DNA from: Hyphomicrobiales bacterium
GTDB lineage: Bacteria > Pseudomonadota > Alphaproteobacteria > Rhizobiales > Beijerinckiaceae
NCBI GenBank assembly: GCA_046092445.1
Contig: JBJTDR010000101.1
Coordinates: 1,726-65,725, forward strand
Direction of reading: 5' to 3'
Length of the DNA: 64,000 nucleotides
Each line of letters opens with the position of its first letter. Position 1 is the first letter of the stretch. The notes beneath the pieces are model-generated. The model worked only from the letters and a program-made list of their open reading frames with translations. It was not told the DNA's origin and did no database searches. Shown here in pieces: positions 5,170 through 28,962 of this stretch. A program made the translations under genes and the position numbers.

Positions 5170-5306
5170 GATTGTCCAAGCGCTAAAGCGTTTTCAAGTT
5201 CCGGAAACAAGTTCCTGTCAAAGTGCCGGACAAAGGGCGAAGGAGCGTTAAGAGCACATCGAAGCCGCCTCGAACACCATCTGCGATCCAACCGCCTCAT
5301 CCCCTG

Positions 5307-6776: not shown

Positions 6777-6791
6777 ACCATTCTCCGGTTG

Positions 6792-7712: not shown

Positions 7713-7816
7713 GTCACTCGTCGGCTCAAGATCATTGATAACATTATCCAGTCAAGGCTTCTAACGAAAGCGACTCCACCTCGGTCTATCACGCGCCAAT
7801 TGGGTCAAAAAATCCG

Positions 7817-7866
7817 CAAAAAACGAAAAAGACGGCCTTCGACGCAAGACACTGCATTGAAGGCCG
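7817..7866 (-). terminator. intrinsic terminator downstream of the proteorhodopsin gene
   Basis: The 8-bp stem cggccttc (7833-7840) / gaaggccg (7859-7866) has further inner pairing. On the minus strand it is followed by UCUUUUUCGUUUUUU (plus-strand A tracts at 7818-7832). It lies 16 nt after the opsin stop. Confidence 0.6.
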
Positions 7867-7881
7867 CCCCGTTCAGATCAA

Positions 7882-8673
7882 TTACTTCGTGGCCTTGTCC
7901 GTTTCACTCACGGCAACCGACCAGATGATCACACCGAAGGCGATCTTGTTGAGAACGTCGGCGAGATTGTAGATGACATTCAGCGCCTTCATGCTGCTTG
8001 CCGGATCGCTGCCTGTCAGGTAACCGAAGAAATAGCCGATCGGATAGATCGCCCAGCCGAAGGTCACAATCAGACGCATCAGGCTGAAAGCGGACTGCAC
8101 CGATGCTGGTGCCTGGCTGGCATTGATCTTGCCGGCTTCGCCGAGGAAGATTTCGTAGAGAATGTACGCCCAGCCAATCATACCAACGATGAAGGCTGGC
8201 CATACGCCGACATAGCCTGCTTCGCCGACATAACCGGCAACCAGCATGACAAGCGTACCGATCATCAGACGCCAGAACACGCCCACTGGCACTTTCGTGA
8301 TTGCCGAGAGGATCAAGTAGAACTCGACCATCAACAATGGCACAGTGATCAGCCAGTCAATGTAGCGATACACGGTCGGCGTCGAGCCTGTCGCGACCCA
8401 AACATCGCGCATGTAGAAATAGTGCACGGCGGCAATCAACGTCACCAGACCCGAAACGGTCAGCGAGGTTTTCCACTTTCCTGCAACGCGCTGCGTTTCC
8501 AGAAAGAAGAAAGCCGTCGACGCGATGAGGGCCATCGAGATCAGCCAGAAGGAGATACCGACGAAATCATCTGGCTTCAGTTCAGATGAAGCGAAGGCCT
8601 CGCTCCCAAATGCCAACAACATGGCAGAACTTGCGACCCCGAGGCGGGTCAAAGGATTATTGAGTGTGATCAT
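7882..8673 (-). CDS. proteorhodopsin, proton-pump type (DTE motif), Leu at the spectral tuning site
   Basis: RYIDWLITVPLLMVEF gives D97/T101/E108 equivalents and Leu at the position-105 equivalent. AAVHYFYM contains the His75 equivalent. NLADVLNKIAFG contains the Schiff-base Lys. The start was moved to the ATG at 8673 (GGAGA 8 nt upstream), giving a signal-like N-terminus MITLNNPLTRLGVASSAMLLAFGSEAFA. Confidence 0.92.
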   Translation of the reverse strand: MITLNNPLTRLGVASSAMLLAFGSEAFASSELKPDDFVGISFWLISMALIASTAFFFLETQRVAGKWKTSLTVSGLVTLIAAVHYFYMRDVWVATGSTPTVYRYIDWLITVPLLMVEFYLILSAITKVPVGVFWRLMIGTLVMLVAGYVGEAGYVGVWPAFIVGMIGWAYILYEIFLGEAGKINASQAPASVQSAFSLMRLIVTFGWAIYPIGYFFGYLTGSDPASSMKALNVIYNLADVLNKIAFGVIIWSVAVSETDKATK

Positions 8674-8873
8674 TCTGAGCGTCTCCTGTTCCATAGTGTG
8701 TTAATTATCGTTCGAAGCAATCGTCAGTTTAGCATTAAATTAAAAGTAATCAACAACACGGATCAAAAATCCGGCGACGGCGCCGATCGCGTCCGGGCAT
8801 TATTGCTTCCCGTATCAGCGATTATCACGATGGAGGACGCATGCCCGCGTCCGAGCTTTGCGAAGCAATCGGC

Positions 8874-9218: not shown

Positions 9219-10610
9219 TCAGTCCCGACGTGTCGTTGGCAGCAATGCGTCCGACCCGTTCAGTACCCGCTCTAACGCGTGATGCAACGGCAGCGGGTCG
9301 GTCACCTTTCTGCCGCGGCAGAGTACGATCCGGTCGGCTTGATCCCGACACAGGAGCGTATTCACGCTGCGGGCGGAAAAGATCACCAGATTCGCCGGAA
9401 GCCCGACGCCGATGCGCCCGAGATCCGGCCGCCCGATCAGATCAGCCGGCACGCGGGAGGCCATTGCGAGGCTTCCGGTCAACGGCTCGTCAGCCTGAAA
9501 GATGCGGATCGCCTGCTTCAACGTATCCAGCATGTCATGGTCGCCATAGGCGTACCAGGCATCGCGGCAGTTGTCACCGCCGATCGCAAGCGGCAGGCCC
9601 GCCGCACGGATCTCGTTCGCCGCAGTCACCCCCCGCCAGCGCGGCGTTCGGCCCGCTTTGCGATCCATCAGATACATCATCGGTGTCGGCATGGACACAA
9701 AGGCGAGGTCCGCCTCCTTGGCAAGGCTGAGTGTATTCTCGATCACCTCTGGCGGCTGAAGCGCGAGATTGACGCAATGGCCGAGCACAACCCGCCCTTG
9801 AAAGCCGCTGCGCAGGCGCGACCGGGCGATCTCCGGAATGGTGAACACCGAAACATCCTCGGTCTGGTCGACATGCAGGTCCACGTCGAGGCTGCGCTCC
9901 TTGGCCAGAGCAAAGAGGCGATCAAGTGCTTCCCCCAACGTGTCATAAGTGCCATTCTCGCCGCGCTCCAGCGTGTCGGTGACCCCGCCAAGGATGCCGC
10001 CCATCGATGCCGCCAGATCTGCAAGATCACGGGCCTCGTCGCCGGTCCAGGCCTCCATCGCGGCGATCGTGACGCCTTGAAGGTCGACGCGGCCCGCCCA
10101 TTTGCCGCGTAACCGATCGAAAACGCGATATCCGCGCCGGGAAAGAGCCAGGGTCTCGCTGTCCACATGCGTCCGGATAGCGGACACGCCATGGACATGG
10201 GCGCATTGGAGGCCGAATTCCATGCGGAGGGTCATGTCTTCGTCTGTCCAACGGTCCCAGTCCATGGCGGTCAGGGAGAATCCGCCATGGATCGTCCCGT
10301 CCGGTCGCACACGGGGGATTGCCTGTCCGCAATCCAGATGCGTGTGCATGTCGATAAAGGCAGGCCAGACATGTCGGCCATCTAGGCATACGGGAGCTCC
10401 GTTCTCCGGCCCCGAGCCCGCTGGAAAAAGCGCCGCAATCATGCCCTGATCAACCAGCACATCTAGCTGCAACGCACCTTCAGCGTCTGAAACGGCGGCT
10501 GGAGGCGGATCGAGAACAAGTTCCGCAGGTATCCTCGCGTTCGACAACATCAGCCTGCTGTCCGGCGGTATCATCAGCGCCGGTTCAATCTGCGTCCACC
10601 ACCTTTTCAT
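9219..10610 (-). CDS. amidohydrolase of the cytosine deaminase / creatinine deaminase-like group
   Basis: AFIDMHTHLD metal-binding HxH motif and CodA-like length and layout. It is the last gene of the operon. The start is ambiguous (ATG at 10610 or 10574). Confidence 0.7.
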   Translation of the reverse strand: MKRWWTQIEPALMIPPDSRLMLSNARIPAELVLDPPPAAVSDAEGALQLDVLVDQGMIAALFPAGSGPENGAPVCLDGRHVWPAFIDMHTHLDCGQAIPRVRPDGTIHGGFSLTAMDWDRWTDEDMTLRMEFGLQCAHVHGVSAIRTHVDSETLALSRRGYRVFDRLRGKWAGRVDLQGVTIAAMEAWTGDEARDLADLAASMGGILGGVTDTLERGENGTYDTLGEALDRLFALAKERSLDVDLHVDQTEDVSVFTIPEIARSRLRSGFQGRVVLGHCVNLALQPPEVIENTLSLAKEADLAFVSMPTPMMYLMDRKAGRTPRWRGVTAANEIRAAGLPLAIGGDNCRDAWYAYGDHDMLDTLKQAIRIFQADEPLTGSLAMASRVPADLIGRPDLGRIGVGLPANLVIFSARSVNTLLCRDQADRIVLCRGRKVTDPLPLHHALERVLNGSDALLPTTRRD

Positions 10611-10641
10611 CGCGGTTCGCACCGGGGTTCGGAGCGGTCGG

Positions 10642-11691
10642 TCAGAAACCTGCCTTGATTTTTTCGAACTCTGCGACCTGACGGTCCCTGAGCGCGAGAT
10701 CAAAGGGCAATTGCGCAAGCGTCGGTCCGTTGATCGGGCTCAGTCCGCTATCATCGAGAAGTTTCGCATCCAGCTTTTTCATGCCTTCCGAATTGGCATG
10801 CCCGTACCCGATCGCGTTGACCAAAGCCGGTGCGCCATCAGGGCGAATCCACGAATTCACGTAATCGTAAGCCTTGTCCTCCTTGCCTTTGCCATTTTTC
10901 AGATTGACCAGACCGCAAAACCAGGTGGTCACCCCTTCCTTGGGCGTGCGCTGATACCCGACCGGGAAATTCTCTTTCCGCAGAAGAGACACGCCGTCAG
11001 GCCATGACCACGCCACCAGCACCTCGCCGGATTTCATGAGCTGCACCAATTCGGATCCCGAATTCACATAGGCACGAACCCCGGGATGGATCTTTCGCAA
11101 CCAGTCCTTGGCCGCGTTGAACTGTTGGTCAGTCACTTTGGTCCAGTCGGTGACGCCCGTCGCAAGATAGGCCAGCGCCCAGACATCATCCGCGGCATTG
11201 GGTAACGTGATGCGGTTGGCATATTTCGGATCGGTGAACACCTGCAGTGTCGCAACATCCGATGTAGGAACCTTTTCAGTATTATAGGCAATCGCCGTTA
11301 CGCCCCAATCCGCCGGGATGATCCAGACACCCTTATCATCCTGAACCACGCTGGATTTCAGAAACTCGGGCATGATATTCTTGAATTCGGGAATTTTCGA
11401 GACGTCCCATGGTTCGATCAAGTTCGCTTCGCGGTATTTCGGAACCATTTGTGCGCAAGGATGCGAAACATCCGCCGCAAAGCCCGTCATTGCCTTTTGA
11501 AATGTATCATCGTCCGAATTGACAAAGGCATAGGTCGGCCTGACACCCCACTTTTCCTTGTAGGCTGCGTATAAACCTTCAACGTCGAACCCCGGCCAAT
11601 CCGTCACGACAAGCTCCGGATCGTCGGCATGGGCTGGAATTAGAAACGCCAGAAAAAATGCACCACACAGAAATTGACGTGCCTTTTTCAT
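10642..11691 (-). CDS. ABC transporter periplasmic substrate-binding protein, PotD/PotF-like
   Basis: Signal peptide MKKARQFLCGAFFLAFLIPAHA, about 350 aa, polyamine-type binding-protein look. It is adjacent to PotABC-like genes. Confidence 0.8.
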   Translation of the reverse strand: MKKARQFLCGAFFLAFLIPAHADDPELVVTDWPGFDVEGLYAAYKEKWGVRPTYAFVNSDDDTFQKAMTGFAADVSHPCAQMVPKYREANLIEPWDVSKIPEFKNIMPEFLKSSVVQDDKGVWIIPADWGVTAIAYNTEKVPTSDVATLQVFTDPKYANRITLPNAADDVWALAYLATGVTDWTKVTDQQFNAAKDWLRKIHPGVRAYVNSGSELVQLMKSGEVLVAWSWPDGVSLLRKENFPVGYQRTPKEGVTTWFCGLVNLKNGKGKEDKAYDYVNSWIRPDGAPALVNAIGYGHANSEGMKKLDAKLLDDSGLSPINGPTLAQLPFDLALRDRQVAEFEKIKAGF

Positions 11692-11891
11692 CTCGTGTCC
11701 CTCCGATCATTGCGATAAAACGCGGATCAGGTTAACGGCCTGCACGTCTGTCGCACGCAAAAAAATCGAACCTCGCAACATGGTTTTTCTTTTGCAGGAT
11801 CAGCGCCGTGCCGAGCACTGCGAAAGCCGGAACGGTGCCATCCGGCAGGCTGGTTTGCCCCAGCGGCCAACGGCCGCCTTGCACCGTAGGC

Positions 11892-12989
11892 CTAACGAAA
11901 CAAGACCATCGCGTCCGCGCTCCACGCCACTCTCGCTTTCGCACCGATGCCGAGAACAGGTCGGCCAAACTCGTTGCGCATGGAGAGCCGAACGGGTCGG
12001 TCCGAACCATCCAGCTTGATTTCATAATGGGTGAGGTCACCCAAATAGGTCACATTGCCGATTGTCGCCATGCTCTCCCGATCAGGCGTTGTTTGGCCGT
12101 CAAACAAGATCGTCAGCGCCTCCGGCCGGAAGCCTAAACTGGCCTCGCCTTCGGATGGAATACCCGCAATCTGGTCCGCTCTGAGTGTGAACCGTCCAAG
12201 GCCTTCAGCACTTACTTGCGCAACATGATCCGATTCAATCGTGATCGTTGCGGGCAGAAAACTCATTGTGCCGATAAAGTCCGCAACACGACGGCAGTTT
12301 GGTCGGCGATAGAGCGCCTGCGGATCGGCCAGTTGCGTGATCTCTCCTTCGAACATGACGGCGATCCGGTCCGACATCACCAGCGCCTCTTCTTGATCAT
12401 GTGTCACTAAAACAAACGTGATCCCCACCTGCCGCTGGAGCCTGATCAGTTCGAACTGCATCTGCTCGCGTAGCTTCCTGTCTAAAGCCGATAGGGGCTC
12501 ATCCAGGAGCAACACCTTGGGCTTCAGGATCAGGGCCCGGGCCAGCGCAACCCGTTGCCGTTGCCCACCGGACAAAGCATGCGAGGCACGCGCGCCGAAC
12601 CCCGCCAAACCCACCATATCGAGCGCCTCAGCGATCGCACGCGCCTTCTCGGTCGGTGATCTCGGGTCACGGCGTAGTCCGAAGCCGACATTCTGCTCGA
12701 CTGTCAAATGGGGAAAAATCGCATAATTCTGAAATACCATATTGGTCGGCCGCAAATTTGCGGGAACTGCCACCATGTTCCCGCCATCGATCAGAACTGA
12801 GCCCGATGATATCTCTTCAAATCCGGCAATCGTGCGAAGCAGCGTGGTCTTTCCGCAACCGGACGGTCCCAGCAGCGAAAAGAATTCGCCTGCTTTGATC
12901 GAGGCTGTAATGCCGCGGAGCGCATGATACGTGCCATAGTGCTTGTGGACATCTCGAAGCTCGATCATTGCGGATTTCTCTGAAGTCAC
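11892..12989 (-). CDS. ABC transporter ATP-binding protein, PotA-like
   Basis: Walker A GPSGCGKTT, signature LSGGQRQR, Walker B LLLDEPLSALD, plus a C-terminal TOBE-like extension. The GTG start overlaps the upstream stop (GTGA). Confidence 0.9.
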   Translation of the reverse strand: MTSEKSAMIELRDVHKHYGTYHALRGITASIKAGEFFSLLGPSGCGKTTLLRTIAGFEEISSGSVLIDGGNMVAVPANLRPTNMVFQNYAIFPHLTVEQNVGFGLRRDPRSPTEKARAIAEALDMVGLAGFGARASHALSGGQRQRVALARALILKPKVLLLDEPLSALDRKLREQMQFELIRLQRQVGITFVLVTHDQEEALVMSDRIAVMFEGEITQLADPQALYRRPNCRRVADFIGTMSFLPATITIESDHVAQVSAEGLGRFTLRADQIAGIPSEGEASLGFRPEALTILFDGQTTPDRESMATIGNVTYLGDLTHYEIKLDGSDRPVRLSMRNEFGRPVLGIGAKARVAWSADAMVLFR

Positions 12990-13795
12990 GAGATGCCTCC
13001 AGAAAGAGTGCTTCCGACCCGCGCGAGCCCGCGGCGCCGGAAATATTCCGCCAACCCGAGCAGGATGATCGAGACGAGCACCAGGATTGATCCGAGCGCC
13101 AGCATTGACGGCACCCGCGCCGGAAAGCGGAACTGACCGTAAATATAGGCGGCAAGCGGCGTATTCGTACCGCCGAGGAAGAAAGCGATGACGAATTCGT
13201 CAAGCGAAATCGTGAAACACATCAGGAGCGACGAGATGATGCCGGGTGTAACCAGCGGCAGAATGACAAGGCGGAACGCCGAAGCCGGCGTCTCGCCGAG
13301 ATCGTAAGCCGCTTCTTCCAGCGATCGGTCCAGCGCGTGGAATGCAGTTGACATGATCGCTACCGCAAAGGGAATACAAATCAGGACGTGGCCAAGAATG
13401 ATCGTCCACAGCGAGAGCGGAATACCGATTGCGAGCAACACGACCAAAATCGACATCGCAATGATCATATTGGGCAAAACCATCGGCAGCATGATCATGC
13501 CCATAATCCCGCCCTTGAGCGGAAACGCGTATCGGGTGCTGGCACGCGCAGCGAGAATGCCGAAGCAGGTGGAAATCACAGCCGTTGAGCCCGAGACGAT
13601 CAATGAATTCTGCAAGGCGCGTAACAGTTGCGTGTCATTCCACATCGCCGAAAACCATTTGGACGAGAAGCCCGAGAGCGGGAACGCGATCACGCTTGAC
13701 TCGTTGAACGCAAACAAGGGGAGTAATGCAATGGGAGCATAAAGGAAGATCAGATAGATGATCGTATAGGCGCGAAGGCTGTTTGCTCGGGTCAT
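12986..13795 (-). CDS. ABC transporter permease, PotC-like
   Basis: ORF 12986..14071 trimmed to the ATG at 13795 (MTRANSLRAY...), which overlaps the upstream stop as ATGA. Multi-pass membrane protein with an EAA-like loop (SLEEAAYDLG). Confidence 0.85.
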   Translation of the reverse strand: MTRANSLRAYTIIYLIFLYAPIALLPLFAFNESSVIAFPLSGFSSKWFSAMWNDTQLLRALQNSLIVSGSTAVISTCFGILAARASTRYAFPLKGGIMGMIMLPMVLPNMIIAMSILVVLLAIGIPLSLWTIILGHVLICIPFAVAIMSTAFHALDRSLEEAAYDLGETPASAFRLVILPLVTPGIISSLLMCFTISLDEFVIAFFLGGTNTPLAAYIYGQFRFPARVPSMLALGSILVLVSIILLGLAEYFRRRGLARVGSTLSGGIS

Positions 13796-14655
13796 GGCAC
13801 CCGCCTCAGAAAACGCCGGTTCAAAAACAAAAACAAGAGGCCGGCAAGCGAGACGACGGCCATGGCGACCACCGCCATTGCCGAACCCGAGGCTCTGTTG
13901 TTGAGCTTTAATAATTGCACTTCCACCAGATTGGCGATCATCGGGGATTTGCCGCTGCCGATCAGGTCGGGCGTCACATAATCGCCAACAGTCGGAATGA
14001 ACACAATCAGAACTGCAGCAGCGACGCCCGGCATGGAAAGCGGCAGAGTGACACGCCGGAACGTGCCCCAATAGGTCTCGCCGAGATCCTGCCCGGCTTC
14101 CAGCAGCGAACGGTCAATTCTTTCCAGAGCGACAAAAATCGGCAGAATGGCGAAGGGTGCATAGGCATGTGCCAGGGTGACAATCATCGCCGCCGTCGCA
14201 TTGGTCATGAACGACATCGGGCCTGATGTCACCCCGATCGTGTCCAATGTCGAGGAGATGATACCGCCATAACCGAGGATCACCTTCCACAAAAAGACCC
14301 TGATGATATAGCTCGTCCAGAACGGAATTGTGATCAGGAACAGCCAGAGGGATTTCTTCGGTTCACGCACATAGAAACTGACGAAATAGGCGATAGGATA
14401 GGCCACAATGACGGTTGCGATAGTTACCGTGATTGACACGATCAAGGTCCGTAACATGATCGCGCGATAAATCGGGTCCGTCAAAGTATCGGCGTAGTTT
14501 CTGAAGGTAAAACCAGCTTCGAACCCCCTCGGTCCGCCGGAAGCGAGCGAGTGCAGGAAGAGGGCTGCCATGGGTGCAGCCAGCAGAAGCAATGCGAACA
14601 CGGCCGTCGGGCTGATCAGGAGAAGTCCACCTCGTGCCTCTGAATGCCTGCTCAC
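13792..14655 (-). CDS. ABC transporter permease, PotB-like
   Basis: Multi-pass membrane protein with an EAA-like loop (LLEAGQDLG). The GTG start overlaps the DMGDH-like stop (GTGA). Confidence 0.85.
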   Translation of the reverse strand: MSRHSEARGGLLLISPTAVFALLLLAAPMAALFLHSLASGGPRGFEAGFTFRNYADTLTDPIYRAIMLRTLIVSITVTIATVIVAYPIAYFVSFYVREPKKSLWLFLITIPFWTSYIIRVFLWKVILGYGGIISSTLDTIGVTSGPMSFMTNATAAMIVTLAHAYAPFAILPIFVALERIDRSLLEAGQDLGETYWGTFRRVTLPLSMPGVAAAVLIVFIPTVGDYVTPDLIGSGKSPMIANLVEVQLLKLNNRASGSAMAVVAMAVVSLAGLLFLFLNRRFLRRVP

Positions 14656-17069
14656 CCCCGCAACCTCGCACCGGCTGGATCAAACGGCGGCTCGACCAGA
14701 ATTTTAGCCTGATGCGGGCGACCCAGAATGGCGACGTGAACCATTGTCCCCGGCTGCGCATGCTCCGCTTTCACATAAGCTATGGCGAGAGACTTTTGCA
14801 CAAAATAGCCATAGGTTCCTGAACTTACTTGGCCTGCCGGCGTTCCGTCAGGCAGGAATACAGGTTCTCCCCCCGTCGCATCGGCCTCCTCCGCGTCAAT
14901 TTCCAGCATCACCATCACATCACGGGGTGGCTTTGTCGCGATATTCTGCCACGCCTCCTTGTTGAGAAAGTCCTTGTCCGACTTAACCAGCTTGTCGAGC
15001 CCGCATTCCTGCGGCCAATATTCGGGACTATAATCACGGCCCCAGCTGCCATAGCCCTTTTCAACCCGCAGACTCATCAAGGCACGCGAGCCGACAGGTC
15101 CGGCCCCAAGCGGCTGGCCTGCCGCGAGCAGGGCCTCATAAAGCGCCACCTGATCTTTCTCGGCGCAGTGAAGCTCCCACCCGAGATCGCCCGTGAAAGA
15201 AACGCGAATGGCGACAACGGAAATCCCGGCCACGACAATGCGTTGCGAGCGCATGAAGGGAGAGGCGCCATTTGAGAGGTCGGCATTGGTTAAACGCTGC
15301 AATAATTCCCGGGACTTCGGCCCCGCAACATTGAAGCCGCAGACAGTCTCGGTAAGCGAGCGGAAAATTGTTGCTTCTGGTAATTCGACATCACGGAAGA
15401 AGCGCTGGTGAAAACGCTCGGCCATGCCTGAGCCCACAATCATGAATTCATCATCGCTCAGGCGTGTCACCGTGAAATCGCCTGCAATCCCGCCGCGCTT
15501 GCCGATCAACGGGGTGAGACAGGAGCGACCCACCTCGCGCGGCATGCGGTTGGCAAAAAGCATATTGAGCCATTTCTCGGCATCCGGACCCTTCACATCG
15601 TATTTCGCGAAATTGGAAATGTCGATAATGCCCGCATGCTCGCGCAGCATGAGTGCCTCGCGCCCGACAGGTCCCCACCAATTCTGCCGCGTGAACCCGA
15701 GTGTTTCCGCTTTCGGCTCGCCGTCCACCGAAAACCACAGCGGATGCTCCCAGCCATAATTCAACCCGAAAATCGCACCCATTCCCCTTTGCAACTCATA
15801 GACCGGGCGGGTCCGGACCGGACGGCCCGCAGCACGCTCTTCATTCGGGAAATGGATCTTGAAGCGGTTGGCATATTGGTCACGCACCCGTGCCTTGGTA
15901 AAGTCGCGCCCGGCCCAGTGACCGTACCGGGCGAGATCCCATCCGAACATATCCAGCGACGGCTCGCCGTCGATCATCCATTCGGCAGCAAGCTTCCCAA
16001 GTCCGCCCGATTGCGAAAAGCCCGGAATAATGCCGCAGCAGCAGAAATAGTTTTTGAGCTCAGGCACCGGTCCAAACAGCGCCGCACTGTCCGGCGACCA
16101 GATCATCGGCCCGTTGATTACGCGCTTGATGCCTGTCTCGCCGATCGCAGGCACCCTCGTGATCGCCCGCATCATATTGGGCTCGATCCGTTCCAGATCA
16201 TCTGGAAACAGCTCATGGCCGAAATTGGCGGGTGTACCGTCCTCCGCCCAGAACTTCATATCCTGCTCATAGGCACCAACCAGCAGGCCCTGACCTTCCT
16301 GCCGCAAATAATATTCGCCATCGCGGTCCGCAATCGACGGCAGACGCCGACCGAGCGCGGCAATCGCCGGAATCGTCTCCGTCACGAGATATTGATGCTC
16401 CGTGGGGATCAATGGCAGGGTCAGTCCGGCCATGGCAGCCACTTCGCGCGCCCAGAGACCCGCAGCATTGATCACCCATTGGGTATGAATATCGCCCCTA
16501 GCCGTGCGTACCAGCCAGCTCCCGTCCGAGCGCTGTTCGGTTGCGGTTACGGCCGTGAAACGATGGATCTCCGCGCCGCGTTGGCGGGCGCCTGCCGCGT
16601 AAGCCGCCGTGACGCCCGAAGGATCGACATTGCCGCCATCCGGCTCGTGCATGATACACCGGATACCGTCAAAATTGGCGAGGGGATGCAGCCTCTCCGC
16701 TTCCGCCCGCGTCACCTCGAAGAAATTCATGCCATAACGTTTTGCCTTCGCCGCCTGCAAACGCAATTGGTGCTCGCGCGCCTCCGTCTGGGCAAGATAA
16801 AGCGACCCCGGCTGGAACACGCCGCAGCCCTGGCCCGTCTCCGCCTCAAGCTCCTTGTAGAGCTTCATCGTATAATGCTGCAGCCGGCTGATATTGGTCG
16901 AGTCATGCAGACCATGAATATTGGCCGCCGCATGCCAGGTCGAACCACTCGTCAGCTCGTCGCGTTCCAGAAGAACAATGTCACTCCAGCCATGCTTGGC
17001 GAGGTGGTAGAGAATGGAGCACCCGATGACGCCACCACCGATAATCACGGCCTGTGCATGGGTTTTCAT
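14652..17069 (-). CDS. FAD-dependent dimethylglycine/sarcosine dehydrogenase-like oxidoreductase with a C-terminal GcvT-type folate-binding domain
   Basis: VIIGGGVIGCS FAD fold and GSTWHAA (covalent-flavin His context of DMGDH/SardH). About 805 aa with an aminomethyltransferase-like C-terminal half. The ATG at 17069 overlaps the MttB stop (TGATG). Confidence 0.85.
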   Translation of the reverse strand: MKTHAQAVIIGGGVIGCSILYHLAKHGWSDIVLLERDELTSGSTWHAAANIHGLHDSTNISRLQHYTMKLYKELEAETGQGCGVFQPGSLYLAQTEAREHQLRLQAAKAKRYGMNFFEVTRAEAERLHPLANFDGIRCIMHEPDGGNVDPSGVTAAYAAGARQRGAEIHRFTAVTATEQRSDGSWLVRTARGDIHTQWVINAAGLWAREVAAMAGLTLPLIPTEHQYLVTETIPAIAALGRRLPSIADRDGEYYLRQEGQGLLVGAYEQDMKFWAEDGTPANFGHELFPDDLERIEPNMMRAITRVPAIGETGIKRVINGPMIWSPDSAALFGPVPELKNYFCCCGIIPGFSQSGGLGKLAAEWMIDGEPSLDMFGWDLARYGHWAGRDFTKARVRDQYANRFKIHFPNEERAAGRPVRTRPVYELQRGMGAIFGLNYGWEHPLWFSVDGEPKAETLGFTRQNWWGPVGREALMLREHAGIIDISNFAKYDVKGPDAEKWLNMLFANRMPREVGRSCLTPLIGKRGGIAGDFTVTRLSDDEFMIVGSGMAERFHQRFFRDVELPEATIFRSLTETVCGFNVAGPKSRELLQRLTNADLSNGASPFMRSQRIVVAGISVVAIRVSFTGDLGWELHCAEKDQVALYEALLAAGQPLGAGPVGSRALMSLRVEKGYGSWGRDYSPEYWPQECGLDKLVKSDKDFLNKEAWQNIATKPPRDVMVMLEIDAEEADATGGEPVFLPDGTPAGQVSSGTYGYFVQKSLAIAYVKAEHAQPGTMVHVAILGRPHQAKILVEPPFDPAGARLRG

Positions 17070-18607
17070 CAAGGTTCTCCGGGTCCGATTTCTTCACGGC
17101 GGCGGGCGACATAGGCGTCGAGTTCCTCGCGAATTGCACGCTCAAGTGCCGGTTCTTCATAGTCTCTCAGCGCTTGCTGCCAGAGCGATGTGGCGCGTGC
17201 CAGCGCATCGCGCGACCCCGCAGCCTGCCATGCACCATGGTTCTGCCAGTCCGAAAGCAGGGGCCGGTAAAAGGCCGTCTCGTACCGCGACATCGTATGC
17301 TCCGACCCGAAGAAATGTCCTCCGGCAGGTACGGATTTCATGGCGTCGAACCCCAGATCATCTTCGGAAAAGGGCAGGGGCTTGAGAAATTCCATCATGT
17401 TCTGCAGAATTTCCACATCGAGGATGAGCTTCTCGTACGAAGCGGTCAGTCCACCCTCGAGCCACCCCGCGGCATGGTAAATCATATTGGCACCGCCGAG
17501 CACGGCACCCCATGTCGCCATGCCGGTTTCATAAGTGGCTTGCAGATCGACAGCGTTGGACGCGTTCGAGTTCGAGCTTCGGTAGGGCAGGCCATAGCGG
17601 CGCGCCAATTGTCCGCCGATCACATTCGCCTTTGTGTTTTCAGGCGTCCCGAAGGCCGGCGCGCCGGAGCGCATATCGACATTCGAGGTAAAGCCGCCAT
17701 ACATCACGGGCGCACCCGGATTGATCAGCTGTGTCATCGCCACACCGAACAGTGCCTCGGCATTCTGCTGTGCCAATGCAGCCGCAAGCGTCACGGGCGT
17801 CATGGCGCCCATCAGCGTGAACGGCGTGATTGTCACCGGTTGCCCGTGTTCCACCATCGCCGCCAGCCCGTCCGTCATCGCATCATCCAGTAATCGCGGC
17901 GAATTGACGGAGATGATGGTAATCACCCCCGGCGCAGCGCGCATCTCCTCCAGACTGGCCCCGCGTGAAATCGCCATCATCTTGATGCCGTCAAGCGCCC
18001 GCCCGCGGCCGATAGCGGTGCAGTGGAAACAGCGATCACTGAGCGTGAGGTTCGCCCGATAGGTATCGAGATGACGGGAATTCGCCGGAAGCTCCATCGG
18101 CGCCACCACCTGATTGCCGATCAGATGAATGGCATTGAAGTGCTGTGCGAGGCGGATGAAATTCTGATAGTCGCCAAGGTTTCCCGCCCGTCTTCCGTTG
18201 ATGCAATCATGGACATTGGGCGGCCCTGCAACGAGGCCGAAGGTCAGGCTGTTGCCGCCAACGCTGAGCATGCGCTGCGGGTTGCGGCTGCTCAGCGTGA
18301 AGGAACGCGGCGCCGACTTGATGGCCGCCATAATCAGGCTCTCATCGGCACGGATGATCCGTTCCGTGCGATCGACAATGGCGCCCGCGCACTCGAACAG
18401 ATCCATCGCCTTCTCGCTCATCACCTTGACGCCGAGTTCGGAGAGAATCCGCATCGAGGTCGAATGCAGCATGTCAAGCTGCTCGTCATTCAAAATCTCG
18501 AAAGGGTTGTAGTCGTTCGTGACATCGCCCCACGGGAGTTGCGGAATCCCCCCGCCTGATCTTCCCGCGCGGGCTCTCCGCCCGCCGCCGCGTCCATCGT
18601 TTGTCAT
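17069..18607 (-). CDS. MttB-superfamily (trimethylamine methyltransferase family) protein, non-pyrrolysine type
   Basis: 512-aa uninterrupted ORF with the typical family length and sequence character (e.g. TPFTLMGAMTPVT, GANMIYHAAGWLEGGL). There is no in-frame TAG. ATGA overlap with the creatininase stop. Confidence 0.8.
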   Translation of the reverse strand: MTNDGRGGGRRARAGRSGGGIPQLPWGDVTNDYNPFEILNDEQLDMLHSTSMRILSELGVKVMSEKAMDLFECAGAIVDRTERIIRADESLIMAAIKSAPRSFTLSSRNPQRMLSVGGNSLTFGLVAGPPNVHDCINGRRAGNLGDYQNFIRLAQHFNAIHLIGNQVVAPMELPANSRHLDTYRANLTLSDRCFHCTAIGRGRALDGIKMMAISRGASLEEMRAAPGVITIISVNSPRLLDDAMTDGLAAMVEHGQPVTITPFTLMGAMTPVTLAAALAQQNAEALFGVAMTQLINPGAPVMYGGFTSNVDMRSGAPAFGTPENTKANVIGGQLARRYGLPYRSSNSNASNAVDLQATYETGMATWGAVLGGANMIYHAAGWLEGGLTASYEKLILDVEILQNMMEFLKPLPFSEDDLGFDAMKSVPAGGHFFGSEHTMSRYETAFYRPLLSDWQNHGAWQAAGSRDALARATSLWQQALRDYEEPALERAIREELDAYVARRREEIGPGEP

Positions 18608-19401
18608 CTGTCTCGCAGCCTCTCCATATCGAATGCGTGCACATCGCGGAGCACGTCGATGAAACCTTTCGCCTGATGGTCAATGATTTTCCGGCCCTTG
18701 TCCGGTGTTGCTGCCGCGGCATTACCAACCGCACCCGCAGGGTTGAGATCGCCGATCTTCCAGCCGAATTGCACCGGCCCGTGCCCGCGCAGCTTGGAAA
18801 AATCTTTATCGAAGGCGTGCTGTTCCGAACAAAAATCACGCGCATGTTCCATTCTGACAAGCTCAGGGCGCAGCGCCAGCATGATGGATGTTTCCTCGTC
18901 TCCGCCGTGAATGCCGCAAGCTGTTTCAGTGTCGCTCAGCACGGCATCCGGCACACCCATACGTGCCCAACTCGTCGCGACCACCAACATCGCGTGGAGG
19001 ATACGAAGTTCACGCGCCACAATGTCCATGATTTGCACATTGCCGCCATGCGATGTGACAATAACGAGTTTGCGGATGCCTGTGCGGGCCACACTTTTCC
19101 CGACATCAAGCCAGCACGTCGTTGCGTTCTCCCACGAGAGTGTGAGTGTCCCCGGATGATCAATATGCTCGTTTGATTTTCCGATTGCTTGCACGGGTAA
19201 AAACACAGCGGGTATATTCGGTGGCAGCAACGCTGCGACACGGTCCACAAGCCCTCTTGCGATGGCCGCGTCGGTCGAGAGCGGCAAATGCGGACCATGC
19301 TGTTCAATAGCCGCGATCGGCAATACAGCGATCCATTGTGCCACGTCAGTTGCATCAAAATCTGTGGTGGTCATGTCTTCCCAGAACACACGGCGGGTCA
19401 T
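18604..19401 (-). CDS. creatininase-family amidohydrolase
   Basis: Metal-ligand motifs AAIEQHGPHLPLSTD, TSHGGN and HGGDEETS are characteristic of the creatinine amidohydrolase family. Confidence 0.85.
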   Translation of the reverse strand: MTRRVFWEDMTTTDFDATDVAQWIAVLPIAAIEQHGPHLPLSTDAAIARGLVDRVAALLPPNIPAVFLPVQAIGKSNEHIDHPGTLTLSWENATTCWLDVGKSVARTGIRKLVIVTSHGGNVQIMDIVARELRILHAMLVVATSWARMGVPDAVLSDTETACGIHGGDEETSIMLALRPELVRMEHARDFCSEQHAFDKDFSKLRGHGPVQFGWKIGDLNPAGAVGNAAAATPDKGRKIIDHQAKGFIDVLRDVHAFDMERLRDR

Positions 19402-19805
19402 TCATCCGCCTCCACACTTCCGGCACAGGCAACAACTTCAACCTCGACCTTGAATTCCGGTCGCGAAAACCCGGAGACGATCAACAAGGTCGACGCTGGC
19501 GGCTCCCGCCGGTCTTTGAAGAACTGGTCGCGAACCGCCATATACGCCGAAAGATGCGTCCGATCGGTAACATAGGCCGTCAGCTTCGCCACATGGCGGC
19601 GATCGAGGCCGGCATGTGCGAGAATGGCTTCGGCATTTTCAAAGCAGAGCAGGGTTTGCTCTTGGACAGACTCAGGGATATCCCCGTTGCGTGAAATGCC
19701 GAGTTGGCCGGAGCAGATCACAAGGCGTTCATTGGCGGCAATTTCAACGCCTTGGGAATACCGCGCCAGTGATGGCGCGGCATTAGTCGAGTGAAGGAAT
19801 TTCAT
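19398..19805 (-). CDS. RidA/YjgF-family reactive enamine/imine deaminase
   Basis: ORF trimmed to the ATG at 19805 (AGAGGA 8 nt upstream). About 135 aa with family-like segments (ICSGQLG, VEVEVVA). Confidence 0.75.
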   Translation of the reverse strand: MKFLHSTNAAPSLARYSQGVEIAANERLVICSGQLGISRNGDIPESVQEQTLLCFENAEAILAHAGLDRRHVAKLTAYVTDRTHLSAYMAVRDQFFKDRREPPASTLLIVSGFSRPEFKVEVEVVACAGSVEADE

Positions 19806-21219
19806 TGGCGAAATCCTCTTCTTTCTTGAGACCGGGAAACAGGTAGAAACCGGCCTTGTCAAAGTCATAATCGGGGTTGTCCCACGCAATCATCTTGCCC
19901 GGATTGAGCAGGCCCTTCGGGTCGACCTCGCGTTTGAAAGCGAGCTGCACCTCGTCCGTCTGCTTCATGCCGCCTTCTTCCAGCGTGAAGCGATGCGGAT
20001 TGAATACCGGACACCCGTGCTCCTCGTGAATGCGCACGATGGCGTCGAGCCGCTCCTCCGTTGTGAAGCGGACGAGCGGAATGCCGTCGCAACTGATGCG
20101 GCCTTCAAAACGCATATACTCGGCATGCCCCGGCACCTCATCGCCAAACAGCATCGACATTTCCACGATCTTCTCGACATGGACAGGATTCGGGTAAAGG
20201 GTCTGAAGATAGGTTATTGACGGGTCCATGCGGATTGCCCGCAGGGTCGTATGGTTCCACGCCAGCTCATAGGCGGGTGGCAGGGAGCGCCGCTCGTCTT
20301 CTGGCAGCGTGTCAGAACGGAAGGAGATGGTCATGCGCTCTTGCCGGCAGAGCGCTTCAAGCGACGAGACGGCATGCGGTGCCACCATCGTCACAATCAC
20401 ATGATCATCAGCCGCGAGATATTTCTGGTGGCGAAGGAAATAGCGGTGCGGCGTCGGCGCTTCGATCGTACATAATTGCTTCAGGAGCAAACCGTCCTGA
20501 CAGGCCAGCACATCCGCGAACCGGTTAAGCTGCGCCCAGTCACGACCCGTGATCAGCATATCGATCCAGTCATAGGAAGCGGTGAGCGGCATGTCGAGGC
20601 GGGTAATGATGCCGTTGGTGCCATAGGCATGGATAACCTTGTGCAGTTCAAAGCCTGTCAAGGTCAGCACGCGGGGCTCCGCCTCCATGGTGATCACGCG
20701 CGCACTGATGACATTTCCGGTATCGCGTAGCGTGCCCCAGCGGATCGACCCCACGCCGCCCGACCCTCCGGCGATGAAGCCGCCAATCGTGGCGTTCCGC
20801 GCCGTTGATGGATGCATGCGCAGCTCTTGCCCCGAATGTGCGCGCGTCGCTTCGTCGATATCGTGGATGATGGCGCCAGCTTCGACCGATACGCATCCCG
20901 GCGCAATCCCGATGACACGATCCAAATTGCGCACGTCAAGCACCACACCGCCGGAGAGTGGCATCGCCTGACCATAATTGCCGGTGCTGCCACCCCGCGG
21001 CGTCACCGGAATATCGAGCCGGTAACAGGCCGAAAGTAATGCAACAACCTCTTCCTCGCTGCGCGGACTCACAACGATATCGCCCGTCACCCCCTCAAGC
21101 TGTCGCTTCAGAACGGGAGAGTACCAGTAAAAATCACGACTGCGTTGCGCAACGACCTTCGGATTTGTCTCGCAGGGTATGCCGTTGAGTAAAGTGATGA
21201 GTTCGTCGATTTTTGCCAT
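19783..21219 (-). CDS. FAD-binding oxidoreductase (PCMH-type FAD domain, GlcD/VAO-like)
   Basis: N-terminal FAD-binding domain (PRGGSTGNYGQAMPLSGGVVLDV), 478 aa. It is the first gene of the operon. Confidence 0.8.
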   Translation of the reverse strand: MAKIDELITLLNGIPCETNPKVVAQRSRDFYWYSPVLKRQLEGVTGDIVVSPRSEEEVVALLSACYRLDIPVTPRGGSTGNYGQAMPLSGGVVLDVRNLDRVIGIAPGCVSVEAGAIIHDIDEATRAHSGQELRMHPSTARNATIGGFIAGGSGGVGSIRWGTLRDTGNVISARVITMEAEPRVLTLTGFELHKVIHAYGTNGIITRLDMPLTASYDWIDMLITGRDWAQLNRFADVLACQDGLLLKQLCTIEAPTPHRYFLRHQKYLAADDHVIVTMVAPHAVSSLEALCRQERMTISFRSDTLPEDERRSLPPAYELAWNHTTLRAIRMDPSITYLQTLYPNPVHVEKIVEMSMLFGDEVPGHAEYMRFEGRISCDGIPLVRFTTEERLDAIVRIHEEHGCPVFNPHRFTLEEGGMKQTDEVQLAFKREVDPKGLLNPGKMIAWDNPDYDFDKAGFYLFPGLKKEEDFANEIPSLD

Positions 21220-21316
21220 AGCGAACGGAATTCGGTTTGTGTGGCGCTTTTCGCCCGCGAAAGAGCGGTTTTCCGCCGGGACTATCTCAGGCTAACTCAA
21301 TTTGGTAGACGCCGGA

Positions 21317-21355
21317 CAAAAGGAAAACAATGGCGTGGGGATCAATTTTTTCGCG
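21317..21355 (+). repeat. 39-nt intergenic repeat, copy A
   Basis: caaaaggaaaacaatggcgtgg + 7 nt + ttttttcgcg. It matches copy B at 35 of 39 positions by my alignment. It lies 98 nt upstream of the FAD oxidase start. Confidence 0.85.
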
Positions 21356-21396
21356 CGGATCGTCAGACAGATCACCTGTATCGCGGGTGACCCGAA

Positions 21397-22266
21397 TCAG
21401 AATGATGCCAAAAGTAATGACTTTAACTTCTCGCTGGCTTGCGTTGGCGGCAATTCTCCGGGACGTAAATCATAACCCCATCCGCTTGGAATATCCGCCG
21501 GGAAGGGCTCGACAAGCAGGCCGCGCCGCACGTGGATTTCAACAAGCGACGCCAGTGTCACCGCGCATCCCAATCCCTTGATCGCCATTTCCAGAGCCAC
21601 GTTGGAGCTATCCGTCTTCAACCCCTGCACAAGCGGCAGGTCCGGAATGCCATGTTGGTGCGCGAAGGCTTCCCAAAGCTCCTGTCGACCAAGAATGTGG
21701 ATCAGGCCTTTGCGCCTGACATCCGCCGGCGATGTCATGGCGTCAGGTCCGGTCATGAAATCCGGCGGACAGACCATAGCCAAACGTTCCTCGCCCAGAC
21801 TTTGGCCAACGAGCGGTTGACGGACATGGCGCGGTGTGATCCGAAGGTCGACAATCTGGTCGGTTGTCTCGGCCCAGATCGTGGCATGGACAGTCACAGC
21901 GACTTCCGGGTTTTGTTCATGATACCGCAATAGTCGTTCCGGCAACCAATTTGTCGCAAGGCTTGCCGGACAAGCAATCACGACTTCCTTCCGGTGCCGG
22001 ACGGTCTGCACATGTCCCGTCGCCAGATCAAGTTGCGCAAGTGACCGTTGCACCGCAGGCAGGTAAGCGGCTCCGACTTCAGTCAATGTCATGCTTCGGG
22101 ACGCGCGGTAAAACAGAGGACGCCCGATGAACTGCTCCAGAACCCGGACATGTCCCGAGACTGCCGCCTGGGTCAGGCGAAGTTCCTCCGCCGCACGGGT
22201 AAAGCTCAGGTGCCGGGCCGAGGCTTCGAATGACCTGATGCAATTCAAAGGAGGAAGGTATTTCAT
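21397..22266 (-). CDS. LysR-family transcriptional regulator (GcvA-like)
   Basis: N-terminal wHTH (SFTRAAEELRLTQAAVSGHVRVLE) plus a LysR substrate-binding domain. The ATG at 22266 is preferred over the TTG at 22290. Confidence 0.85.
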   Translation of the reverse strand: MKYLPPLNCIRSFEASARHLSFTRAAEELRLTQAAVSGHVRVLEQFIGRPLFYRASRSMTLTEVGAAYLPAVQRSLAQLDLATGHVQTVRHRKEVVIACPASLATNWLPERLLRYHEQNPEVAVTVHATIWAETTDQIVDLRITPRHVRQPLVGQSLGEERLAMVCPPDFMTGPDAMTSPADVRRKGLIHILGRQELWEAFAHQHGIPDLPLVQGLKTDSSNVALEMAIKGLGCAVTLASLVEIHVRRGLLVEPFPADIPSGWGYDLRPGELPPTQASEKLKSLLLASF

Positions 22267-22415: not shown

Positions 22416-23012
22416 CTAAAGGGGGATTTTGGCGATGCGCGCCTTCACGCGGTCAATATAGCGGCGACGGGTGGGGTCGGTCTGATCATCCATATCATGC
22501 AGGCCTAACCAGAACGTCTTGGTGCGCGGTGATGTGCAATAGCGCATCCCGCGCAGGATGATCTTGCGGCCTGGTGCCCCCATCAGGAACGTCCAGAACC
22601 ACCAGGGAGAGCCAAAAGTGGTGATTACCCCGATGAGTCGTACATTTGTGAGTGCCCCGCGCAACGGCTCCGTGGGCGTTCGCAATGTAAACGTCACTCC
22701 GGGCCGCCAGACCCGATCGATCCAGCCCTTGAGCATGGCGGGCTGTGAATACCACCATGTCGGGTAAACCAGGATCAGTCCCTCCGCCCATTGCAGATTT
22801 TCGATATGGGGAACGAGATCCGCTGGCGTTGTGCCGTCCTCGGTGTAACCGCGGCGTTCGTCAGCACTCATGACGGGATTGAAGCCCTCGCCGTGAAGGT
22901 CGGTAATGCGGACATCATGGCCTCTGGCGCGGGCCGTTTCGACCGATACCTTCAATAAACGGGTATTGAAACTTTCGGGGACAGGATGGGCATGAATGAA
23001 CAGAAGGCGCAT
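22416..23012 (-). CDS. NAD(P)H dehydrogenase (quinone), flavodoxin-like fold family
   Basis: ORF trimmed to the ATG at 23012 (MRLLFIHAHPVPESFN...). LILVYPTWWYSQPAMLKGWIDRV is typical of the Flavodoxin_2/NQO family. Confidence 0.8.
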   Translation of the reverse strand: MRLLFIHAHPVPESFNTRLLKVSVETARARGHDVRITDLHGEGFNPVMSADERRGYTEDGTTPADLVPHIENLQWAEGLILVYPTWWYSQPAMLKGWIDRVWRPGVTFTLRTPTEPLRGALTNVRLIGVITTFGSPWWFWTFLMGAPGRKIILRGMRYCTSPRTKTFWLGLHDMDDQTDPTRRRYIDRVKARIAKIPL

Positions 23013-26509: not shown

Positions 26510-26522
26510 TACCTGTCATAAC

Positions 26523-26558
26523 AGAGTCTGCCGGGTTGGGTTATACCCGGCAGACTCT
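26523..26558 (+). other. perfect 14-bp intercistronic stem-loop
   Basis: agagtctgccgggt (26523-26536) pairs with acccggcagactct (26545-26558) around an 8-nt loop. It lies between the binding-protein gene and the PrpD-family gene. There is no clean U tract afterwards. Confidence 0.8.
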
Positions 26559-26576
26559 CTTCATTTGAGCGGCTCG

Positions 26577-27905: not shown

Positions 27906-27908
27906 CAC

Positions 27909-28955: not shown

Positions 28956-28962
28956 GCACAAG

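Follow-up and report, generated by a model that had tools for sequence, protein, structure and literature searches.

Degradation of pterins was still termed largely uncharacterised in a 2025 paper, which describes a molybdenum-dependent route other than the one considered here (PMC12391406), and aerobic marine bacteria were reported to demethylate glycine betaine by means of the MttB-family methyltransferase MtgB together with the corrinoid protein MtgC and the methyl-tetrahydrofolate-forming enzyme MtgD (PMC12478193). Genes related to pterin degradation and to betaine demethylation were found within one operon of a Hyphomicrobiales bacterium, located on a stretch of 64,000 nucleotides (nt) of contig JBJTDR010000101.1 (assembly GCA_046092445.1, positions 1,726 to 65,725), hereafter referred to as the window. 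The operon comprises ten consecutive minus-strand genes running from position 21219 down to 9219. With a confidence somewhat better than even, it is proposed to represent a chimera of two evolutionarily separate units, namely a pterin-catabolism unit (unit P) and a betaine-demethylation unit (unit B), of which unit P, as part of the same proposal, would be a lineage-specific version of a conserved alphaproteobacterial cluster for the catabolism of pterins or closely related N-heterocycles.

Unit P resembles the Arad3529/6V42 cluster of Rhizobium and Agrobacterium. Both share a CodA-like amidohydrolase, a FAD_binding_4 flavoprotein whose C-terminal half is unique, a Flavodoxin_2 protein, a Rid-like protein with Ser at the position of RidA Arg105, a creatininase-family protein, an ATP-binding cassette (ABC) importer and a LysR gene, with identities of 58-65% for the flavoprotein and about 42% for the amidohydrolase. 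The window differs from this cluster in its PotD-like importer, a Gln variant of the amidohydrolase, a LysR regulator of another subfamily, the inserted genes for MttB and a dimethylglycine dehydrogenase (DMGDH)-type enzyme, and the gene order. Arad3529 is cited in three publications as a CodA-like enzyme deaminating pterins and folate (PMC9513972, PMC12391406, PMC13197243), and an Arad3529-type, CodA-like deaminase is noted for the versions of the pterin cluster present in Rhizobiales and Rhodobacterales (PMC12391406). In the pterin/lumazine cluster I of Cupriavidus sp. LA-1, pterin breakdown likewise starts with a pterin deaminase, but then proceeds to xanthine via a molybdenum lumazine dehydrogenase, an isomerase and a decarboxylase that depends on prenylated flavin mononucleotide (PMC12391406). 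None of the latter enzymes is present in the window, and cluster I in turn lacks the flavin oxygenase, the creatininase-family hydrolase and the Rid-like protein of the window.

Unit B is similar to the MtgB/MtgC/MtgD system of Ruegeria pomeroyi in that a pfam06253 methyltransferase without pyrrolysine occurs in an aerobic alphaproteobacterium with its partners encoded elsewhere; MtgC and MtgD are often encoded elsewhere, and in R. pomeroyi they lie away from mtgB (PMC12478193). Moreover, the MttB gene of the window adjoins a gene for a DMGDH-type enzyme for the next demethylation, as in the glycine betaine route with dimethylglycine dehydrogenase. The window differs from the MtgB system in the absence of MtgC and MtgD, in an MttB protein devoid of the Y97/F356 cage and in the location of the gene pair inside an unrelated catabolic operon. 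An earlier reading of the locus, made from its sequence and referred to below as the original prediction, had regarded aerobic betaine routes as proceeding without MttB, a view that is outdated in the light of MtgB from aerobic marine bacteria (PMC12478193).

Organization of the Operon

Based on the list of open reading frames (ORFs) and on direct reading of the minus strand, the operon starts with the gene for the FAD_binding_4 flavoprotein (19783-21219; Pfam), hereafter named FAD protein after its flavin adenine dinucleotide (FAD) domain. This gene is followed by those for a Rid/YjgF-family protein (19398-19805; PF01042), a creatininase-family metal-dependent amide hydrolase (18604-19401; PF02633, 237 bits), a non-pyrrolysine methyltransferase of the MttB superfamily, quaternary amine:corrinoid type (17069-18607; PF06253, 671 bits), and a DMGDH-type FAD/tetrahydrofolate N-demethylase (14652-17069; DAO, FAO_M, GCV_T and GCV_T_C). 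The remaining genes encode a PotB-like permease (13792-14655), a PotC-like permease (12986-13795) and a PotA-like ATPase (11892-12989), all recognized by Pfam and NCBIfam, a periplasmic binding protein of the PotD/PotF family (10642-11691; SBP_bac_8 and SBP_bac_6) and an amidohydrolase (9219-10574; PRK07583 of NCBIfam). A gene for a LysR-family regulator (21397-22266; Pfam HTH_1 and LysR_substrate) is located 177 nt upstream of the operon on the same strand. Furthermore, a gene for a Flavodoxin_2 NAD(P)H-dependent oxidoreductase (22416-23012, minus strand; PF02525 and PF03358, PRK09739 of NCBIfam below cut-off) was found 149 nt upstream of the LysR gene, also on the same strand and beyond the region covered by the original prediction. 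Its ATG at 23012 yields a protein of 198 amino acids (aa), equal in length to the homologue encoded at L015, one of the related loci considered below.

Stop and start codons of neighbouring genes overlap as ATGA at 19398-19401, 18604-18607 and 13792-13795, as GTGA at 14652-14655 and 12986-12989, and as TGATG at 17067-17071, and the FAD and Rid genes share 23 nt (19783-19805). The ten minus-strand genes, these junctions and the upstream LysR gene had been named previously and were recovered here from the ORF list and the strand reading alike. The accompanying description as an overlapped operon applies to seven of the nine junctions only; the binding protein gene follows the PotA-like gene after a gap of 200 nt, and the amidohydrolase gene follows the binding protein gene after 67 nt, or 31 nt if an alternative start is used. 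Four-nucleotide overlaps are an ordinary operon signature and provide evidence of co-translation, nothing rarer; the genes of the locus form a true operon with translational coupling. A scan for promoters and terminators returned counts no higher than those for shuffled sequence, and GC contents as well as GC contents at third codon positions (GC3), determined by gene, showed no clear compositional break singling out the MttB and DMGDH genes as foreign.

Profile searches in Pfam and NCBIfam agreed with the family-level labels assigned to the genes before. The earlier statement that no canonical route fits this set also stands, since no described pathway with exactly these genes was found in the literature searched. 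The homarine operon homABCDER, known from a recently described marine pathway for an N-methyl heterocycle, was considered as a candidate and rejected, because its parts (HomAB pair, peptidase, aldehyde dehydrogenase) do not match the window operon.

A Gene Cluster Conserved across Hyphomicrobiales

One genome per species was scanned with an alignment of the FAD protein, which resulted in at least 584 confirmed relatives, and 80 loci were examined. Twelve window proteins were tabulated against these loci by tblastn, and the counts given here and below originate from the 64 loci with a length of 19 kb or more. All 64 loci encode an amidohydrolase homologue beside the FAD protein, and all 64 a Flavodoxin_2 NAD(P)H oxidoreductase homologue adjoining the orthologue of the FAD oxygenase. 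A homologue of the Rid-like protein was detected in 62/64 loci and one of the creatininase-family protein in 56/64, the latter at a median distance of 6 kb from the FAD gene and with 45-65% identity. Homologues of MttB and of the PotD-like binding protein as well as close homologues of the DMGDH-type enzyme were each found at 0/64 loci. The FAD, Rid-like, creatininase-family, 'cytosine deaminase' and Flavodoxin_2 genes of the window thus represent one instance of a cluster that Hyphomicrobiales share widely. Within it, the window operon is a divergent member whose MttB/DMGDH pair was either acquired or ancestrally held.

In one Rhizobium example, the cluster is composed of the creatininase gene, the LysR gene and, in this order, genes for an NMT1-type binding protein, an ATPase, a permease, the amidohydrolase, the FAD protein, the Flavodoxin_2 protein and the Rid protein. 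With the creatininase gene as anchor, metagenome contigs featured the same core and, among the matches listed (relatives of at most 63% identity), no MttB gene. The creatininase-family protein taken alone had initially appeared in the neighbourhood look-up as a singleton in unrelated contexts. At one Pannonibacter creatininase locus, a FAD_binding_4 gene and genes for a 450-aa amidohydrolase (41% identity), a Rid protein (49%) and an ABC transporter lie a few kb away.

The Pfam match of the FAD protein is confined to its N-terminal FAD domain. Using phmmer, the protein was aligned to the PDB entries 6V42/6V43 over residues 4-466 (E 1e-183), and Foldseek ranked 6v42_A first for its AlphaFold model (mean predicted local distance difference test score, pLDDT, of 74), with template modeling (TM) scores of 0.84/0.86. 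The title of 6V42 as returned by Foldseek reads 'flavin oxygenase … involved in folate catabolism'. The Flavodoxin_2 protein is probably the flavin or quinone reductase partner of this oxygenase.

By exact-sequence look-up, the Rhizobium cluster amidohydrolase, encoded at L057:8656-9969 immediately upstream of the FAD gene, shares a 90% cluster with ACM27458.1, which is named 'Pterin deaminase' in UniProt and corresponds to Arad3529 of Rhizobium rhizogenes K84. The original work on Arad3529 reportedly concluded from genomic analysis that an undescribed pterin degradation pathway exists. A full-length alignment of the window amidohydrolase with Arad3529 (P0383), covering 443 positions, shows 42% identity (E 2e-107). 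Since the FAD protein matches 6V42 and the cluster amidohydrolase is Arad3529, the conserved core is best read as a putative pterin (folate-fragment) catabolic cluster, the deaminase of which is known biochemically and the oxygenase structurally. In the literature searched, only the deaminase and one crystal-structure title are public on this pathway, and no description of the remaining steps was found there. 'Cytosine deaminase', 'creatininase' and 'RidA' are automatic names in hundreds of Hyphomicrobiales genomes; the co-occurrence described above ties these misnamed genes to predicted pterin or folate-fragment catabolism instead.

Unit P accordingly consists of the Flavodoxin_2 protein, the 6V42-type oxygenase, the Rid-like and creatininase-family proteins, the ABC importer and the Arad3529-type amidohydrolase. 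From the observed homology, gene order and co-occurrence we infer all chemistry and substrates, which for unit P are deduced from the protein families and two characterised homologues. A pterin-type compound would be imported, its exocyclic C-N bond would be hydrolysed by the amidohydrolase, and the ring would be oxygenated by the flavoprotein, with the NAD(P)H oxidoreductase as the source of reducing equivalents. Subsequently, the creatininase-family enzyme would open a cyclic amide, and the Rid-like protein would process a labile imine or enamine.

Creatininase-Family and Rid-Like Proteins

The original prediction had seen in the operon a candidate for an uncharacterised pathway acting on a methylated amine or a cyclic guanidino/amidine osmolyte that a polyamine-type transporter would import. 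It was considered here as a pathway for creatinine, creatine or another such osmolyte, which would employ creatininase and creatinine (cytosine) deaminase activities and the oxidation of sarcosine or dimethylglycine. There are likenesses to creatinine routes, such as the PF02633 match mentioned above, the CodA-like amidohydrolase and a flavoenzyme of the sarcosine/dimethylglycine type, which could oxidise sarcosine-like products. Moreover, the creatininase-family protein shows similarity to creatininases of solved structure over residues 1-190 (E about 1e-17). However, its score for the creatininase equivalog TIGR04448 is 87.5 bits against a cut-off of 235, and the MftE model of NCBIfam scores higher (109.8 bits); judged by these profiles, the protein is not a creatininase equivalog. 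The amidohydrolase does exceed the cut-off of NF005759 (PRK07583), a model named 'cytosine deaminase' (468.8 vs 403 bits), with the Glu of the HxxE motif absent. The same model scores an Arad3529-type pterin deaminase orthologue with 695.8 bits, and its name is therefore not evidence for cytosine or creatinine as substrate.

Regarding gene content, no creatinase, N-methylhydantoinase or carbamoylsarcosine amidase was found among the window ORFs scanned. Both hydrolases co-occur with a 6V42-type oxygenase in more than 50 species and, at the tabulated loci, never with creatinase or sarcosine oxidase; the orthologues thus travel with genes for pterin catabolism. The MttB pairs of Sinorhizobium meliloti and Labrys do adjoin genes for creatinase-like M24 and isochorismatase-family proteins, but the M24 protein of S. 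meliloti is closer to DddP, its best model although below cut-off, than to any creatinase model. Failing on the equivalog score, the missing partners and the orthology to the pterin cluster, a creatinine or guanidino pathway is considered highly improbable.

The Rid-like protein scores 64.3 bits with TIGR00004 of NCBIfam (cut-off 106.25). In an alignment with E. coli RidA, of which Arg105 is the catalytic arginine, a Ser within a 'PPAST' motif ('PASTL' in the cluster) takes the position of this arginine. Ser at this position is common to about 130 Rid-like orthologues of the cluster (loci L012-L179). By its residues, the protein is not of the archetypal RidA type, and because Ser replaces Arg105 across the conserved cluster, the automatic 'RidA' annotation of its Rid-family genes is probably wrong. 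That RidA quenches imines, as stated in the original prediction, is doubtful as a description of this protein, which remains below the Rid subfamily cut-off and carries Ser at Arg105.

Amidohydrolase Active Site and Importer

The window amidohydrolase and E. coli cytosine deaminase have matching metal ligands in the alignment (HxH, His, His, Asp). In the HxxE motif, Gln replaces the catalytic Glu (Glu217 of E. coli CodA), so that the motif reads HVDQ. Gln at this position is limited to the window and three related loci (L015, L016 and L020), and Glu is present in the other 81 sequences, including the Arad3529 group and a further related locus, L014. Among relatives with solved structures, AtzC is the best match, by a small margin; AtzC frees an alkylamine, not ammonia.

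The PotB-, PotC- and PotA-like proteins match Pfam and NCBIfam models but remain below all equivalog cut-offs; orthologues with 69-78% identity are encoded at the Aestuariivirga loci L016 and L020. For the binding protein, the NCBIfam equivalogs yielded 102 vs 582 bits (PotD) and 79 vs 636 bits (PotF). With regard to the residues that contact polyamines in the structure of E. coli PotD, W34, W229, W255 and Y293 are kept, E36 is changed to Gly, D168 to Ala, D257 to Cys and Y85 to Gln, and the exchange of E171 for Asp is conservative. Because three of the four polyamine carboxylates of PotD are replaced, it appears unlikely from these alignments that the protein binds spermidine or putrescine. 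The previously proposed polyamine-type transporter was hence recognized at the family level, whereas the replaced carboxylates speak against polyamines as ligands.

MttB/DMGDH Pair and the Divergent Transporter Unit

The MttB protein covers PF06253 completely (profile positions 1-500 of 500) and is encoded by a continuous ORF of 512 aa with no in-frame UAG. Orthologues with 77-79% identity occur throughout Mesorhizobium, Sinorhizobium, Labrys and Tabrizicola. The DMGDH-type protein is 75-79% identical to the neighbours of MttB in S. meliloti pSymA (79%), Tabrizicola and Labrys, and the pair of M. loti shows 78% (MttB) and 84% (DMGDH) identity to that of the window. In Sinorhizobium, Labrys, Tabrizicola and Mesorhizobium alike, the pairs are accompanied by transporters and regulators of the betaine type. 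Human and rat DMGDH were matched over residues 2-796 (E 1e-183 to 1e-185), and no NCBIfam equivalog was reached.

At the MttB loci of S. meliloti pSymA, Tabrizicola and Labrys, genes for LysR, a DMGDH-type enzyme, an OpuAC-type ABC transporter and a GbdR-like regulator lie nearby, as do genes for creatinase-like M24, isochorismatase, MR_MLE and Ldh_2 proteins. None of the other enzymes of the window operon is encoded at these three loci, and no NCBIfam equivalog was reached by the rhizobial MttB neighbours. The order in S. meliloti pSymA (about 800-826 kb; L005/L008) and Labrys neptuniae (L181) is DMGDH-like, LysR and MttB genes, followed by genes for GlxA/GbdR-like, M24 and isochorismatase proteins, the OpuAC ABC transporter, MR_MLE and Ldh_2. 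The S. meliloti locus adjoins a Fer2/molybdopterin/cytochrome c dehydrogenase resembling nicotinate hydroxylase. No description of the substrate of the rhizobial DMGDH/LysR/MttB locus was found in the literature.

The OpuAC, MR_MLE and Ldh_2 families near the S. meliloti and Tabrizicola pairs are reminiscent of the Hpb pathway for proline betaine and hydroxyproline betaine, which, however, demethylates by the Rieske enzyme HpbBC and the flavoenzyme HpbA, not by MttB (PMC3950512). Based on these different demethylases, identity with the Hpb pathway was ruled out, and its relevance is limited to an analogy in gene context with the MttB loci of rhizobia; the window operon contains neither MR_MLE nor Ldh_2 genes.

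In MtgB, Arg312 and His348 bind the carboxylate, and Tyr97 and Phe356 form a cation-pi pair for glycine betaine, a pair not kept by MttB members that act on other substrates (PMC13080624). In the phmmer alignment of the window MttB with the structure of MtgB carrying bound glycine betaine (9yce), for which an offset of +2 between the numbering of the chain and that of the paper was inferred, the carboxylate-binding residues R312 and H348 are conserved. Unit B is accordingly pictured as a two-step N-demethylation of a carboxylate-bearing quaternary amine (betaine), in which MttB would first transfer a methyl group to a corrinoid protein and the flavoenzyme would then oxidise a further N-methyl group onto tetrahydrofolate, feeding the folate one-carbon (C1) pool.

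Upstream of the operon and divergent to it, a unit at 24863-32189 on the plus strand encodes an SBP_bac_5 binding protein, an MmgE/PrpD enzyme, two permeases and a double ATPase (Pfam). The SBP_bac_5 protein (24863-26509) and the MmgE/PrpD protein (26565-27905) show 59% and 44% identity, respectively, to products of genes located between DMGDH/LysR and MttB in M. loti. Furthermore, a 66% identical SBP_bac_5 protein is encoded directly downstream of a paralogous DMGDH-MttB pair on a Mesorhizobium plasmid. The unit also adjoins L015, and the L016 and L020 sequences available did not reveal it. It probably belongs with the MttB/DMGDH pair. Since its homologues accompany such pairs in Mesorhizobium, it would, by analogy, be the more likely importer for their substrate, and unit B probably works together with it and with corrinoid and methyl-tetrahydrofolate partners encoded elsewhere.

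The SBP_bac_5 subfamily of 24863-26509 may bind quaternary amines. On a plasmid of Fuscovulum ytuae (L183, NZ_CP124537.1 10744-40333), a LysR gene and an operon with SBP_bac_5, MR_MLE and Ldh-family genes lie beside genes of the xanthine dehydrogenase family and a '6-hydroxynicotinate reductase' gene. An MttB-family gene and a gene for a FAD-dependent oxidoreductase are located 11 kb from the SBP_bac_5 operon, which marks the region as another uncharacterised N-heterocycle/betaine island.

Closest Relatives and Alternative Readings

Metagenome-assembled genomes (MAGs) of Aestuariivirga are the nearest genomes to the window locus. At L016 and L020, genes for Flavodoxin_2, LysR, FAD, Rid, creatininase, PotB, PotC, PotA, binding protein and amidohydrolase homologues were found with 67-83% identity, and these operons lack MttB and DMGDH. 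In the closer relative L015 (88-98% identity), MttB and DMGDH are present and the pot genes are missing, so that the amidohydrolase gene directly follows that for DMGDH. L014 carries genes for Flavodoxin_2, a different, Glu-containing amidohydrolase, FAD, Rid, creatininase, MttB and DMGDH. The neighbourhood conservation that the original prediction had put forward as a check was thus recovered in so far as the genes are conserved elsewhere, though as two independent units and not as one pathway.

Between the operon and the SBP_bac_5 unit, genes for a class-I glutamine amidotransferase-like protein and an EamA-family transporter are located at 23219-24842 on the plus strand. They accompany the operon also in its closest relatives (L001-L003, L015) and were not found beside L016.

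Several observations weigh against a chimera of a pterin unit and a betaine unit. The window amidohydrolase is only about 40% identical to the members of the Arad3529 group, which among themselves share 56-67%, and since Gln sits at the position of the catalytic Glu, the variant may not be a deaminase at all. No paper on the reaction of the 6V42 enzyme was found in the literature, so that 'folate catabolism' rests on the PDB title. The binding protein is PotD/F-like (SBP_bac_8) instead of NMT1/SsuA-type as in the standard cluster, and the window LysR shows 24% identity to the LysR of the Rhizobium pterin cluster, compared with 46-48% over its full length to the MttB-adjacent LysR proteins of S. 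meliloti and Tabrizicola. The LysR of L016 is likewise of the type accompanying MttB and DMGDH, though L016 lacks MttB. Concerning unit B, MttB has Gly at both cation-pi positions of MtgB, Y97 and F356; together with the conserved Arg and His, this suggests that its substrate is probably an acidic quaternary amine bound in another way than glycine betaine in MtgB. Moreover, no B12-binding or pterin-binding protein (corrinoid protein or methylcorrinoid:tetrahydrofolate methyltransferase) was detected among the ORFs scanned across the 64-kb window. By analogy to R. pomeroyi, which also encodes these partners away from mtgB, their absence does not exclude a function of MttB. Finally, the MttB and DMGDH genes directly follow the creatininase gene, still coupled, in the window, L015 and L014, and this coupling in three arrangements, together with the LysR type, favours functional integration over an accidental chimera.

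The divergence of the amidohydrolase and the importer also bears on a second, tentative reading, which overlaps the preferred one and appears possible rather than probable. According to this reading, unit P has moved off pterins to another amine-bearing heterocycle unrelated to folate, with exchange of the importer (NMT1-type to PotD-like) and mutation of the amidohydrolase, and MttB and DMGDH are co-transcribed passengers. The low identity to the Arad3529 group, the restriction of the Glu-to-Gln exchange to this lineage and the absence of the PotD-like binding protein from all 64 standard loci are consistent with such a change, as is L014, where the FAD, Rid and creatininase genes are paired with a different, Glu-containing amidohydrolase. 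On the other hand, the flavoprotein (58-65% identity to its orthologues in the standard cluster), the Rid-like protein and the creatininase-family protein (45-65%) are still clearly orthologous to those of that cluster, the Flavodoxin_2 partner has been kept, and no positive evidence was obtained for any alternative substrate.

Functional integration would be complete if all enzymes of the operon served the breakdown of a single heterocycle, N-methylated, pteridine- or purine-like and probably cationic. This molecule would then be demethylated by MttB and the DMGDH-type enzyme, acting on it or a methylated amine released from it, and the amidohydrolase, oxygenase and creatininase-family enzyme would degrade it. 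Besides the position of the pair behind the creatininase gene at three loci, the overlaps of the MttB and DMGDH genes with each other and their neighbours (4, 1 and 4 nt) are in line with this idea. The same applies to a LysR of the MttB-accompanying subfamily even in relatives devoid of MttB, to a binding protein that keeps the aromatic cage and has lost the polyamine-binding carboxylates, and to an amidohydrolase that, in exactly this lineage, lacks the catalytic Glu and has the alkylamine-releasing AtzC as its best solved relative by a small margin. However, MttB/DMGDH pairs with 78-84% identity reside in rhizobial loci without any unit P gene, which argues for the same substrate there and here. 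In addition, neither MttB nor DMGDH is encoded at L016 and L020, which share the Gln exchange, the PotD-like binding protein and the LysR, the adjoining SBP_bac_5/MmgE-PrpD unit, a companion of MttB and DMGDH elsewhere, offers a separate importer, and no candidate compound was identified. A single integrated pathway is therefore regarded as unlikely.

If true, the integrated pathway would provide the first MttB-family enzyme tied to the catabolism of a heterocycle and not of simple betaines. The PotD-derived, aromatic-cage binding protein would capture the compound, the cobalamin-dependent MttB and the folate-dependent DMGDH-type enzyme would feed its methyl groups into the C1 pool, the Gln-variant amidohydrolase, as a descendant of pterin deaminases, would act on an N-substituted ring or free an alkylamine, and the oxygenase and the creatininase-family enzyme would open the ring. 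Irrespective of the reading, including the preferred chimera of units P and B, this lineage represents a natural experiment in which the importer was exchanged, the Glu of the deaminase replaced, and MttB and DMGDH wired into the same transcript. It offers testable proteins for the substrates of uncharacterised MttB paralogues in aerobic Alphaproteobacteria and for the question of how catabolic operons change substrate.

Further Features of the Window

Directly downstream of the operon, a complete rhodopsin photosystem is encoded on the minus strand (2190-8694). It comprises genes for a bacteriorhodopsin-like protein (7882-8694), a polyprenyl synthase (6792-7712), a phytoene desaturase (5307-6776), a phytoene synthase (4234-5169), a lycopene cyclase (3080-4237) and a beta-carotene 15,15'-dioxygenase (2190-3173). 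The organism is therefore considered to be a photoheterotroph related to lake Aestuariivirga MAGs, and for such a rhodopsin-bearing relative, the compound degraded is likely an aquatic dissolved organic nitrogen species.

The region 34000-52000 has a lower G+C content (0.46-0.51) than the remainder of the window (about 0.57). Its genes encode two HpcH/HpaI aldolases, 2-hydroxyacid dehydrogenases, short-chain dehydrogenases/reductases, GFO/IDH/MocA oxidoreductases, a sugar-type ABC transporter and a cupin protein, as well as a 676-aa ORF without Pfam match (36794-38824). Just upstream of this stretch, a fusion of PfkB and DUF2090 is encoded at 32558-34543.

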